Position numbers and translations under genes: made by a program
DNA from: Eledone cirrhosa
Taxonomy: Eukaryota
Length of the DNA stretch: 64,000 nucleotides
Assembly: GCA_964016885.1 (NCBI GenBank)
Contig: OZ024742.1
Coordinates: forward strand, 29,512,001-29,576,000
Reading direction: 5' to 3'
Shown: piece by piece, positions 6,930-62,284 of the stretch
Layout of the letters: each line of letters opens with the position of its first letter
Numbering within the stretch: position 1 is the stretch's first letter
The notes under the pieces: generated by a model
The model's input: only the letters and a program-made list of their open reading frames with translations
The model's database searches: none
What the model was told of the DNA's origin: nothing

Positions 6930-7134
6930 ACCATCCCTAAGTTATTCCGGGTTGAATCGGAGGTAACCACAGTAAGTAAGGTACTCAATACATAGCAGAG
7001 TATAAAAGTTTTAATATAGAAGAGCTTCTACCGGACTAGAACTGTTTCATTCGTAAGAAATCATCAGGGAGACCCTGATGATTTCTCACGAATGAAGCAG
7101 TTCTAGTCCTGTAGAAGATCTTCTATATTAAAAC
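6930..7134. mobile_element. Fold-back element (family H) with HHR core at the hairpin apex
   Basis: Arms ~7008-7069 and 7073-7134; CTGATGA-T-TTC-4nt-GAA-T-GAAAC...GTC starts right after the centre; unpaired tail 6930-7007, also seen inverted at ~7925-7990. Confidence 0.7.
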
Positions 7135-7158
7135 ATATATATATATATATATATATAT

Positions 7159-7356
7159 AACGAAGGAAATGTGGTAAGGAACAAGGTGGACCATAACGCA
7201 CCAAAGTACTCAATACTTAGGGTAGTAGAGTGGTGGGTAATAGGAACAAGTAGGACCCCGATGGCTGAGCTCAAGCCGTTTCGACGGCTAATTCTGGTCC
7301 AGAATTAGCCGTCGAAACGGCTTGAGCTCAGCCGTCAGGGTCCTACTCGTTCCTAT
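7159..7356. mobile_element. Fold-back element family B in (TA)n
   Basis: Centre CTGG-T-CCAG at ~7297; 3' half of an HHR (GAAACGGCT...AGCCGTC); ~80-nt tail; homologous to 28871-29065 and 57527-57666. Confidence 0.8.
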
Positions 7357-7394
7357 ATATATATATATATATATATATATATATATATATATAT

Positions 7395-7823
7395 GAATTT
7401 GTTTTGCAAGGTTCTTTTATATGAAATCGTATCGTGAGACGGAGACAAGAAGAAATGAAGAAATAAATAGAAAAAAAATGGCGTGGACATTACAATACAA
7501 TACAATAGGAGGGAACATAATAATAGAACCATTGTTGATGTTGCAGATGTGCAACAAAAGAACTTTGATAGACTGTATATATATATATATATATATATAT
7601 ATATATATATATATATATATATATATATATATGTATTTTTAACCGTTGGTCAATCAATGCTAAACATTGATTGGCAAATAAATTAACTATGGAGATTAAC
7701 TATGGAGATATACAAGATACAGAAACGAAAACCAACCAAACAGTGAGTGTGTTCTGTTATTATTTCTGACAGCATTATTACAACAATATGACCCCCCCCC
7801 CCCCCCCCCAAGTATAACAATAT
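7395..7823. mobile_element. Family A element: inverted tail plus sense arm ending AAGTATAACAATAT
   Basis: 7395-7434 resembles the tails at 10955-10995 and 15895-15930; 7480-7823 matches 58260-58512 and 11880-12185. Confidence 0.7.
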
Positions 7824-8104
7824 ATATATATATATGATGATGATGATGATGATGATGATGATAATGATTTCCTTTGAATGAAACAGCTGTAGTCCTATAG
7901 AAGCCATTTCTATATTACACATTTATACTATACTCTGTTATGTATTGGGTAACTTACTTACTGTGGTTACGTCCGATTGAAGCTGGGATCTGTGTATAGA
8001 ACACTTCAATCACTAAACGATGATGCAATTAGGTTCAAGCACACTACGTCATGTGAATCGTTCCAATTGTGATGTGGTAGTCCATGACGCGATATACATA
8101 CACT

Positions 8105-8240
8105 AATTGTTTCTACGTTTGGCACAAAGGCCAGCAAATACCCAGTGCATTACTGGTACTGTATTTCATCGACGTCGTAAGGATGAAAGGCAAAGTTAAC
8201 CTCGGCAGGATTTGAACTCAGATCGTAAGGGGACGTAACT
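8105..8240 (-). mobile_element. tRNA-SINE family 1 copy
   Basis: AAGGATGAAAGGCAAAGTTAACCTCGGCAGGATTTGAACTCAG is the reverse complement of the family core. Confidence 0.75.
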
Positions 8241-9022
8241 ATGATGATTATTCCGACTAGATATAGATAATAATTCATTTTATTCATAATTTGTCATAAT
8301 ACATATTTCTGTGGCCATCAGGATTACTTAATACAGTCATCATATATATATGTGCGTGTGCGTGTGCGTGTGTGTGTGTAAGTATGTATGTATGTATATA
8401 CGTACGTATGTATATGTATGTATTTATATGTATGTGAGTATCTATGCACGTATGTTTGTATTTATATATATATATATATATATATATACATGTATATATA
8501 TAGGACTCCACCTCTACACTCCAATCAATGGTTTAGTGTGGATCAGTGAACATCGTCACTTGATGAATATTAAATGAACTGAGCAATTATCGCATTCATG
8601 TACTTCCATACATTCTATGCATCTCTCTTGCTCTCTCTCTCTCGCTCCCTCTCTCTCTCTCTCTCTCTCTCTCTCTCTCTCTCCCTCTCTCTCTCTTTCT
8701 CTCTATCTCTCTGTATGTATACATATACATATATATATATATATTCTCGTTTATATTATCTTTCTATCTACCTATCTATCTACTTATCTATCTACCAATC
8801 CATCTATCTATCAACCTTTCTAACTATCTCTCTCTCTATCTACCTATCTATGTATCTATCTCTCTGTCTATCTATCTATCTGTCTATCTATTTAGCTATC
8901 AATCTATCCATCTACCTCCATCGTTCTTTATATATATATATATATGTATATATATATATATATATATATATATATATATATATATATATATATATATATA
9001 TATATATATATATATATATATA

Positions 9023-58707: not shown

Positions 58708-58831
58708 TCCAGACGGCCGTTTCGTTATAAAATTTCTACAATTTGGGATAAATAATTTCCAGGTTATGTAGAAACTTGTATATAATCCATAGTTTTATAC
58801 ACAAGCGGTCTATTATAAACTCATCAGTGGA
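58708..58831 (-). ncRNA. Hammerhead with canonical core and branched stem II, in a diverged relative (58525-58970) of the 995-bp unit
   Basis: TCCA-CTGATGA-G-TTTATAA...TTATAA-C-GAAA-CGGCCG-TC-TGGA; GUC triplet. Confidence 0.8.
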
Positions 58832-59049
58832 TGCCCAAATAATATCGATATAAGAATTATATCGACATTAATAGAATGGTGATGGTCTCCCTCAGCGCTA
58901 AGAAGAGACTGGTAGATTAGAAAATCCAGCAGTCCTCCCAAAGATAAAATACACGCTGTCCCCAAAAGGGTAAAGGGAGGTCATCATAAGGGAGAGAAAG
59001 AGGGGGAGAGAGAGAAAGAGATAGAGAATGGGAGTGAGACAATGATATA

Positions 59050-59215
59050 GATAAAAGATCGACTCTAGTACTTGACTGGTACTTTTTTATCGACCGTGAA
59101 AGGATGAAAGGCAATGTTTACCTCGTTAGGATTTGAACTCGAGAGAGCAGTGAACCGAGGAATACCACAAATCACTCTTTTCGATGTTCTAACCATTCTG
59201 CCAATTCGGAGCCTC
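59050..59215 (-). mobile_element. tRNA-SINE family 1 copy
   Basis: CTGGTACTTTTTTATCGACC..AAGGATGAAAGGCAA..GGATTTGAACTC. Confidence 0.7.
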
Positions 59216-59734
59216 CAAATATGTACTTAGAGACGACTATGTGAAAATATATACCAGATCTTTACGTATTATAAACATTCATTAAGTCTTGCTGTGGTAA
59301 TTATAAGCTGTGATAATGTTACAGCTACCTCAGTAGCCATGTAAGAATGCTATTTCAAGATTTTTATCCATCTTTAGTGGCGCTCTGTCACTCGGTAGCA
59401 GTATATACTCGTAAAGATTTCTAAAAAAATTTATGGAGATCCCCATTTACACGTGTCGTGGATTTGAAGGAATACTTAAAATACACACAGCTATACATAT
59501 GTATATTTATTATACATAAACATATTGTATATGTTTTCATATACATCTCTGTTTTGAATTACGCTGTTAGTGTTACTACCATTCTGATATATTCGTCCAT
59601 GCGTCGTCTTCCTCTCGGTAGACTTAGTAATGGGTTTTCAGTTCATTTCTAAAACTTATTTACCTGCTGTAAATAGTAGACGAATCCCCTCAAATCATAA
59701 CTTAGTATCATAAAAGGTAAAGACATTTTAAGAT

Positions 59735-59995
59735 ATCCAATGGTTAGGTTGCTTGAGATATGATCGTAACGTCGTTCGTTCGATTCCTGGACCGGGTTGT
59801 GTGTTGTGTTCTTGAGCAAAACCCTTTATTTCACGTTGCTTCAGTACACTCAGCGGAGATGAGTGAGTATCAGCTGTAGCTGGAGAGTTCAATCTGCGAT
59901 AGACCAGCGTCCTGTCCAGGGAGTGTCTTGTACTCTCAGTCGCTTAACACCAAGGAAACCGGTGATGAGCCTTTGGCTTAGAACATACTTTAACT
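59735..59995 (+). mobile_element. tRNA-SINE family 2 copy
   Basis: GTTCGATTCCTGGACCGGGTTGTGTGTTGTGTTCTTGAGCAAAAC; homologous to 13838-14095. Confidence 0.7.
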
Positions 59996-62086
59996 TTTAA
60001 TATTCTTGATTGCAGACACCTATGTAAGATTGGAGATGATAGAGAGGGTAAAGCGCTGGATTAAATACCTGAATATATTAATTTCGTTCCTGGAGTGGTT
60101 TCAGTCCAATCCTGCAAGAGGTGGAATTTGTACTGCAGTCATCCTGGAGGCAATGATATAAAAATATTAATAATAATTTCTAAAGATACGATCAACTAAA
60201 GTTTCGATTCAATCAACGATAACTCTTTCCCTACAAATTTCTGGTCTTGTGCCAGGCTAGGATACCATTATTAATGTTTCTGTATGAAGTCAGACTTGAA
60301 GAAAGACCAAATTATCTATCTTACATTGTACTACCTCTGTACCAACACAGGATTTTGCTTTCTTTTCTTTCTAGAAACTTCCATTCATCTTGTGTGAACA
60401 CACCGCCATAGTGTGAGCTATTTCCTCAGTGTAAAGCCCATTATTTCTATCGTTTAGACTTTATCTAATTCTTCCATCTTCCTTTCTTACTTCCTCACAT
60501 AGTTTTCTTCATCTGTAGCTATACATTCACACTTTCTCTAACTATTCTTAAACCTTTCAAGATCATTATTACTTTGCAATTTTGTTTGATTCCTCCTTCG
60601 TTTCTTCATCTTCTTCTTCTTGTGAAGTCTGTTAATCTCATTAGTTGTCCTAATAAATCAGTTAGCTTCCAGCCTTTGCTTCCAATCTTTTCCATTTTGA
60701 CGTTTCTTCTCTCGTCCATCTACTTAACTCAGTTTTACCATCCACAGCCAGTCCACAACACCAACCCCCAACACCACCTACTACCCCACCTCCTCTAAAC
60801 AATACTATGCTCATTATCGTCTTTTCCTTAAAAACCACAGCACCTTACTCTCACCCACTTCACTGCTAAACCCCTCTCTCACTCTATATTTATCTATCTA
60901 TATATATATCCATCTCTCTCTCTCTCTCTCTCTATATATATATATATATATATATATATATATATATATATATATATATATATATATATATATATATATA
61001 TACATATGCGAAAAGTCAACAGGTAAAAATAACACAGAAGTGAGAACGATATATTACAAAGATGATATATAATAGTTTAACACTTGATCTTTAGGAAAAG
61101 TGCCTTTACGTTTATGTTAAGACGTGTGTGTGTGTATATATATATATATATATATGTATATGTGTGTGGGGGGTGCTTGTGTGCGGGCGTGTATATACAC
61201 ATATGTGCGCGTGTATGCATATACATGTATATATATACACACATATATATGTATATATATACATATATATATATATATATATATATATATACATTCATAT
61301 ATATATGTGTGTGTGTGTTTGTGAGTGCGTTTGTGTTCGTATGTGTTCGTGTGTGGGCCTGTGTGTGTATTCGTGCGAATTTGTCGTCTATGATTTCCTA
61401 ACCACTCCTATTATCCTTTGCAACCAATACATAAAAACATAACCAATATTCCCTCAGTACAACTATACTGCTTCTGACGACAGAACTGTGAGGGTCTCGA
61501 AACTTTAACGAATACATTTATTTAGGAACTCTACTGTTGAAAAACTAATCACAAACATCAAACAAGGAAATACGATAAATCCTTACAAATCTTCAAAGGA
61601 CAGTCGTGATTATATATACGTGTGTGTGTGTGTATATATATATATATATATATATATATATATATATATGAAAAAACAACCTGAGCCCCCCCACCCCCTT
61701 TGTTTGAAGAACTTTGTAACGCGAACTGGCGCGAAATTTATTATACTTATTCAATGACTAATCAAATTACTTCTCTAAAAACCTGGCGTATCGGGCCACT
61801 TTTTTCCATATAAAACAAGTAACATTCAAAGACCAACCAGATGTGAGAAAAACCACAGACCTTCCATCTCAACTCTACCTTTGAAAAGCAGAAGAGCTGC
61901 GAAACCGGTAAAGGAACCAAATAAATATATATATATATATTTTTAAATAAGACTCCAGCTGCATTTTCGATTTCATCTTATTTCCTTATACTTTCACTCG
62001 TGTAGGACACCACGGTTATTTTTCCTTTTGTAAAAAAAAACCTCACTTTCTAATAATATATGTATATATATATATATAAATATATA

Positions 62087-62284
62087 GGTAGAACACTGGA
62101 AGGTAATATCCGTAGTGGTAAGCACTCAGTCCATGGGACGAGTTAGGAGTTAGGTAGAAGTAGTTACACAACTGTTAGTTCACCATACCGAGAAGAATTG
62201 TTTCACCTTAGCGGATCTTCAGCTCGTGCTGGGTGAAACAATTGCTCTCGGTATGGTGAACTAACTGTTGTGTAACCCTTCTAT
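62087..62284. mobile_element. Fold-back element family G with HHR at the apex
   Basis: Minus strand 62189-62226: CGAG-CTGAAGA-T-CC-gctaa-GG-T-GAAA-CAATTC-TT-CTCG (the other arm has CAATTG); ~70-nt tail. Confidence 0.8.

Follow-up and report, generated by a model that had tools for sequence, protein, structure and literature searches.

Published descriptions of Penelope-like elements (PLEs) include an inverted, 5'-truncated copy, a tail on one side only, a hammerhead ribozyme and targeting to (TA)n (PMC8557442, PMC3846280; PMC8969392 is also among the sources that document this architecture). The minimal hammerheads of PLEs have a U3-A8 core and occur in opposite-strand pairs (PMC4209133). Self-priming was proposed for PLE palindromes in 2013 (PMC3846280), and the origin of the inverted repeats and the one-sided tail was named an open question in PMC8557442, the supplement of which includes octopus Hydra and Naiad elements with (TA)n targets and also names Hydra-1_Obim. 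A PLE protein was reported to nick and extend both strands and to use two start sites, one on either side of the tail (PMC11167929), and non-coding tandem derivatives have been described (PMC7229834; bioRxiv 10.64898/2026.07.22.740005). Here we analyze a (TA)n-rich stretch of 64,000 nt from the 3.0-Gb genome assembly of Eledone cirrhosa (GCA_964016885.1, contig OZ024742.1; G000:C3:29512001-29576000), referred to as the window, which carries numerous hairpin-like insertions.

Most of these hairpins are 5'-truncated end-pieces of PLEs and not a separate non-coding class. A previous sequence-only reading of the window had described at least nine non-coding families with a link to PLEs. The link was borne out, as coding parents were found for hairpin ends; the term "non-coding" was wrong for six of the nine families, which represent coding PLEs in the form of truncated ends; a non-coding class shrinks to two families (F and H) that consist of non-coding units. 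In A, B, C, E and I, the sequence is the 3' end or pseudo-long terminal repeat (pLTR) of a coding PLE, and in G this is likely so as well.

In the window itself, the element at 54953-57667 (PLE-A) carries reverse transcriptase (RT) and GIY-YIG motifs, and its final ~138 nt match the arm of the family A hairpin. Close copies of PLE-A are plentiful (124 of 124 scored; a first look gave 84,128 candidates across related families). One of them, L062, contains an intact frame of 784 aa that, by its motifs, joins RT and GIY-YIG within one open reading frame (ORF). Intact frames of this length lie within tandem PLE units of 3531 bp, which are found in L061/L062 and L067/L068, and pLTR tandems also exist for family B (L211) and family I (L334). 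Family B lies directly 5' of the start of a Hydra-like ORF (L211), family I occurs both 3' and 5' of Hydra-like ORFs (L325, L334), family E is located 3' of a Neptune-type ORF (L252, L255) and family C 3' of a GIY-YIG ORF (L276). Family G is found ~1 kb 3' of a Hydra-like ORF fragment in L306; L314 and L315 are consistent with this by position only. No parent was found for family D in 8 loci or for family H in 10 loci, and none of D, F and H was seen attached to a single ORF with RT and GIY-YIG. A Pfam search gave no match for four PLE fragments or for the complete PLE-A frame, and the ORF calls rest on motifs.

The PLE-A protein displays an RWK-like motif (RWR), DKT, a CxCx5C linker, and CxxC and CxH around E and N; cysteines are absent between GIY and YIG, a CCHH motif is lacking, and the targets are (TA)n. 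By these protein motifs, PLE-A fits the published marks of the Hydra clade (PMC8557442). The Neptune-type frame in L255 has a linker CxxC with the first Cys substituted, while a related frame in L085 contains the full CX2-5CxxC motif; the two are 45-48% identical. In L076 (2528-3600), a Neptune-type ORF fragment is fused in the same sense onto a family E hammerhead end, which amounts to an internal deletion or a template jump.

The sequence-only reading had counted about 14 insertions and given 16 starts. Self-BLAST confirmed a fold-back at 14 of the 16, with an arm identity of 76-100%. At the remaining two (7395 and 28325), element-by-element comparison revealed arms that lie head to head and overlap by only ~11 nt, in agreement with the earlier remark that they barely overlap. 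The layout described for the insertions held, and several extents and flanks had to be amended: 7395 includes a (TA)n and continues as far as 7823, 28325 extends to 28725, the hairpin at 38278 has a tail of 82 nt (to 38710), that at 16225 is indeed flanked by microsatellites, which are (AG)n/(CT)n and not (TA)n, and at 40207 the inverted arm accompanies a tandem array. Nine families account for the 16 insertions: A (2), B, C/C2 (5), D, E (2), F (2), G, H and I. Their tails measure 31-106 nt.

For an estimate of density we used an unselected sample of 800 kb, namely four of five sampled 200-kb blocks (the fifth, C2, is satellite without copies and was excluded). It contained 78 fold-back loci, 40 of which have microsatellites on both sides, one flush with the fold-back and the other 15-130 nt off. 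This corresponds to ~50 such fold-backs per Mb; extrapolated from this sample, with 8 to 40 loci per block, the genome-wide number would be on the order of 100,000. As a chance control, mirror repeats were counted beside inverted repeats. There were 24 inverted versus 5 mirror matches around the window, and 63 versus 5, 28 versus 1, 14 versus 1 and 0 versus 0 in other blocks. The control was thus low in four of five informative blocks and broke down in one (24 inverted versus 160 mirror). Blocks C1, C4 and C12 hold 19 hairpin-plus-tail loci that fall outside the reference families, as well as fold-backs resembling short interspersed nuclear elements (SINEs) without microsatellite flanks.

Two discrete 3' ends, spaced 21-106 nt, exist in 11 of 13 references. 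Among 173 head-to-head pairs called (most of them from element-based searches with overlapping loci incompletely removed, just 27 from unselected blocks and the window region), 169 joined ends of the same family, and in 168 of these the tail was on one arm only, a tail end being combined with a tail-less end. Of the 66 ends in the sample of 800 kb, 30 belonged to a called pair; unpaired ends are also common under the strict rule. Three joins between different families (L064, a C7 block, L284) obey the same rule, which suggests jumps between RNAs. The layout is not restricted to short hairpins: coding copies of kilobase length show it too, with the tail on either the long or the short arm. For 148 pairs with a close junction, the arms were symmetric within 12 nt in 105, the tail-less arm was longer in 27 and the tail arm in 16, the excess reaching 2 kb in L040 and L044. 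Arms of the same pair shared 297 of 344 minor alleles (149 pairs), compared to fractions of 0.08-0.32 for shuffled mates in informative families; families C and H gave no information, and at least 3 discordant sites were present in 10 pairs. Centre junctions differ base by base and in both directions, some with filler. Most element ends coincide with a TA in the element.

Most arms stop at a fixed 5' position, here called the wall. In family B, 58 of 70 arms end at or before position +6, and in family E 46 of 50, with none ending at 7-24; in family G 40 of 52 arms end by +9 and in family A 90 of 133 by +6. Arm extents are underestimated where subfamilies diverge from the single-copy references. 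A TATA-like motif lies upstream of the wall, at -29 in both A and B and at -31 in E (chance 0.017 per 6-nt window). From these sequence features we infer that the wall may be the transcription start within the pLTR, and the short hairpins would be run-off copies of the 5' pLTR.

We consider it somewhat probable that the 5'-truncated PLE stubs arise when both nicked target strands prime on one RNA and the copies run off its predicted 5' end. The PLE protein would nick both strands of the target, and each would prime reverse transcription at one of two start sites. With two start sites on a single RNA, one arm would reach the far 3' end and the other would fall short by the length of the tail. 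Both complementary DNAs (cDNAs) would run off the 5' end of the RNA, which could be the transcription start or a break. Their 3' ends would then join head to head, each possibly serving as template for the second strand of the other, and F and H would be passengers mobilized in trans. Double priming with run-off would explain the one-of-each rule, the shared variants, the wall, the occurrence of excess length on one arm or the other, and the non-overlapping insertions. A wider picture, in which double-primed insertion is the normal product of PLEs, the genome holds stereotyped hairpins on the order of 100,000, family H is a SINE-like passenger that bears a tRNA and lacks a ribozyme, and RNA jumps link families, is conceivable, and we hold it only tentatively.

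Several observations weigh against double priming. No accumulation of tail arms is seen at the inner start site (11 of 29, 12.5 expected). The 105 of 148 symmetric pairs, 13 of which lie off defined walls, require that both enzymes leave one broken RNA end; 8 of these 13 centres belong to C, C2 and F, families without a defined wall. The join between families in L355 looks like a tail end on a tail end. Family I shows diffuse arm ends without a sharp wall, the TATA-like motif is absent in G and I and hence found in 3 of 5 families, and a cap-derived G is not clean (A 9/19 and B 6/7, mostly attributable to the mate arm; E 1/19). The reading of the wall as a start is derived from sequence. Palindromes can lose their centre by deletion, and either arm polarity could arise later. 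The shared variants fit snap-back equally well.

Snap-back of the cDNA, which the sequence-only reading had proposed, is a serious rival that we regard as possible but unlikely. It is not new (PMC3846280) and fits second best. A tail-primed PLE cDNA would fold, copy itself and stop or be cut at the base of the tail, and unequal arms would stem from later deletions at the centre. The near-symmetric pairs, including those off the wall, follow from it directly, and the alleles common to both arms agree with it; some junctions also match a small loop on the tail arm, and Craig 2021 (PMC8557442) ascribed the tail to endonuclease resolution. Against this, a longer tail-less arm, as in 27 of the 148 pairs, is impossible without subsequent deletion, and in L036, L040, L044, L057 and L060 tail-less arms that bear an ORF stand beside short tail arms. 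The commonest family A junction among the top matches likewise has the longer tail-less arm, although the query favored it, and the inner end corresponds to an RT start site in vitro (PMC11167929). Altogether, the evidence favors double priming over snap-back.

A palindrome formed before integration seems improbable. It could arise by self-priming of an antisense transcript or fold-back at the RNA level, or a few short hairpin masters could be re-transposed as a whole. Self-priming was put forward for Adineta PLEs (PMC3846280), and 40 of 40 top family A matches, albeit selected by score, share the hairpin layout. However, centre junctions vary between copies and use bases present only in the parent, and the layout extends to coding arms of kilobase length. 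That the hairpins are miniature inverted-repeat transposable elements (MITEs), or fold-backs created artificially in sequencing or assembly, is largely refuted and retains only a very slight chance: target-site duplications are unreadable inside microsatellites and the junction at 11590 was unbridged in 4 of 4 read runs in a locus-specific raw-read test, but the arms diverge by 0-24%, the ends are identical to retrotransposon ends and asymmetric in 168 of 169 pairs, an unpaired tail always being present at one end in place of symmetric terminal inverted repeats (the reading had already argued against MITEs), and 89 and 91 raw reads from a different study cover the centre base of a family A hairpin. 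Most of these reads end beside the centre, and a span of 31 nt on both sides is not shown. The stronger argument against an artefact is the combination of diverged arms with ends at fixed element positions. The hairpins are real.

A strict hammerhead descriptor matched 4 of the 13 reference ends (A, C2, G and Lf). In the window it gave 6 matches, 2 of them within a satellite, compared to 0-3 in 10 shuffles. By eye only, a CUGANGA...GAAA core was recognized in B, C, E and I, with half a core in F and none in H. Every core seen in the arms points outward from the centre, as had been stated. The short family A hairpins hold just the 3' half of the ribozyme. The family A wall falls within hammerhead loop II, and therefore the complete ribozyme would exist only in read-through RNA. 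An Rfam scan of the window yielded no hammerhead among 150 of 325 matches listed, and among these just microRNA-like ones below threshold. In the element at 10102, a gap of ~135 nt in the mirror arm (10392-10426) takes out the hammerhead. Further PLE ends in the window, several with hammerhead cores and some unfolded, lie at 9852-10028, 50150-50500, 50560-50707, 51200-51466, 27060-27325, 58260-58512 and 7864-7989.

F and H fail the complete type I hammerhead descriptor and display PLE-type double ends and inversions; they are non-coding tandem units of short length and likely depend on PLEs. Family F is a tandem unit of ~530 bp in arrays of ~10 units, an account based on match coordinates and a few copies without flanks. 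Family H is a unit of ~290 bp with a tRNA-like segment, scored by the Rfam tRNA model at 34-39 bits (cut-off 29) in both loci scanned. ARAGORN called a tRNA in 7 of 7 family H loci given and none in the window copy, which is cut within the tRNA-like segment. The 5' ends of H are scattered, and a T5 run comes after the tRNA-like part. Two of 10 family H loci are fused to an end from another family, namely Lf in L355 and one with a hammerhead-like motif in L359, which suggests promiscuous capture.

Table 1. Hairpins, related insertions and the coding PLE of the window
Feature	Position (strand)	Structure	Remark
Family B hairpin	6938..7141 (-)	tail arm 6938-7071 (-), tail-less arm 7073-7141 (+)	pLTR from Hydra-like PLE; parent L211
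Family A hairpin	7158..7356 (-)	tail arm 7158-7297 (-), tail-less arm 7297-7356 (+)	final ~138 nt of PLE-A
Family C	7394..7823 (.)	tail-only arm 7394-7443 (-), 320-nt tail-less arm 7450-7823 (+), (TA)n inside	~11 nt reference overlap
Family C2	10102..10489 (-)	tail arm 10102-10392, hammerhead near 10336	internal gap of ~135 nt in mirror arm
Family C	10955..12185 (-)	590-nt arms	centre is last codons of GIY-YIG ORF of parent (L276)
Family C short hairpin	15893..16047 (-)	both arms begin 106 nt from 3' end	
Family D hairpin	16226..16399 (-)	flanks (AG)n/(CT)n	older family, ~80% identity; parent not found
Family E	27635..28054 (+)	tail-less arm 27635-27829 (-), tail arm 27829-28054 (+)	Neptune-type PLE 3' end; parents L252, L255
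Family F	28322..28725 (+)	tail-less arm 28322-28609 (-), tail-only arm 28608-28725 (+)	11-nt overlap
Family A hairpin	28871..29065 (-)		centre junction unlike that of 7158
Family C2 short hairpin	36041..36190 (-)	both arms begin 103 nt from 3' end	
Family G	38278..38710 (+)	351-nt palindrome, 82-nt tail on right	hammerhead in each arm; likely Hydra-like parent (L306)
Family E hairpin	39759..40186 (-)	left-hand tail	
Family F	40212..42263 (-)	~520-bp non-coding tandem units (-), inverted arm (+)	inverted arm stops 106 nt before tail end
Coding PLE-A, 5'-truncated	54953..57667 (+)	RT C-terminus; GIY-YIG frame 55249-56220; 3' region; full hammerhead region ~57480-57575; tail; (TA)n	family A parent
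Family H	57681..57970 (-)	hairpin from ~290-bp non-coding tandem unit with tRNA-like segment	hammerhead core absent
Family I	62087..62283 (-)	tail arm 62087-62227 (-), tail-less arm 62232-62283 (+)	pLTR from Hydra-like PLE; parents L325, L334

In 27 cases (TC)n comes after the 3' end of an element, and in no case (GA)n, the usual order being end-(TC)n-(TA)n (in the window, for example, at 28054-28190). Repeats may be added or selected at priming, and PLEs may seed microsatellites. Other repeats of the window include a broken Neptune-type PLE at 52385-54874 (-), intact 775-aa frames of which are frequent elsewhere in the genome, and two related long interspersed nuclear elements at 20863-26243 and 29860-35153 (+). 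Both of the latter carry ORF1 together with an APE-RT ORF2, and in the first a frame of 1150 aa is intact. A mariner-type transposase fragment and a nearby inverted pair of 100 nt, each copy (TA)n-terminated, are located at 392-491, 1223-1319 and 1551-2400. A tandem satellite of ~995 bp occupies 62385-64000 and is also present in L076 (1-1413), where ~220 nt are inverted about a long (TA)n.

A genome with many young copies from several clades links the two start sites found in vitro to genomic structure, with predictions that can be counted. Genome annotations should list palindromes of this kind under PLE ends instead of treating them as MITEs, precursors of microRNAs or errors of assembly. 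In the literature searched (most subscription papers were outside our reach), neither double priming nor run-off from the pLTR start came up as an explanation of PLE inversions, and a PLE passenger with a tRNA was likewise not encountered; if family H is indeed a PLE-dependent tRNA element, this pairing of partners was not found there either.

In L1 twin priming, both target strands prime cDNA, which leads to an inverted 5' part; these events are occasional and the arms do not overlap. In the Eledone PLEs, by contrast, double priming would be regular, the start sites are fixed and the arms mostly overlap. Closer relatives are the endonuclease-bearing PLEs with an inverted pLTR and tail (PMC8557442, PMC3846280), which share the head-to-head 5'-truncated copy, the one-sided tail, a predicted pLTR hammerhead, (TA)n targets and the junction palindrome. 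Their tails measure 30-40 nt compared to 31-106 nt here, and the copies described here are mostly ORF-less stubs that end at a fixed 5' wall, at ~50 per Mb. PLE-A has the marks of the Hydra clade (Craig 2021) listed above; its unit of 3.5 kb exceeds the general size of <3 kb, pLTR tandems are evident, and its hammerhead has a U3-A8 core with a long stem II. Poseidon PAc of Anolis (Frangieh 2024, PMC11167929) is alike in its two tail-bracketing RT starts, the nicking and extension of both strands and the AT-rich targets. Its starts lack homology to the cut DNA, whereas most ends here coincide with a TA in the element, and inverted products are left unexplained in the accessible text. With the non-LTR retrozymes (Cervera 2020, PMC7229834; Li 2026, bioRxiv 10.64898/2026.07.22.740005), F and H share short non-coding tandem units; they differ by their half (F) or missing (H) hammerhead core, by the tRNA-like segment of H and by their PLE-type double ends and inversions. 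The hairpins are additional members of a known PLE architecture; their worth comes from measurements that bear countably on the mechanism, and from family H.

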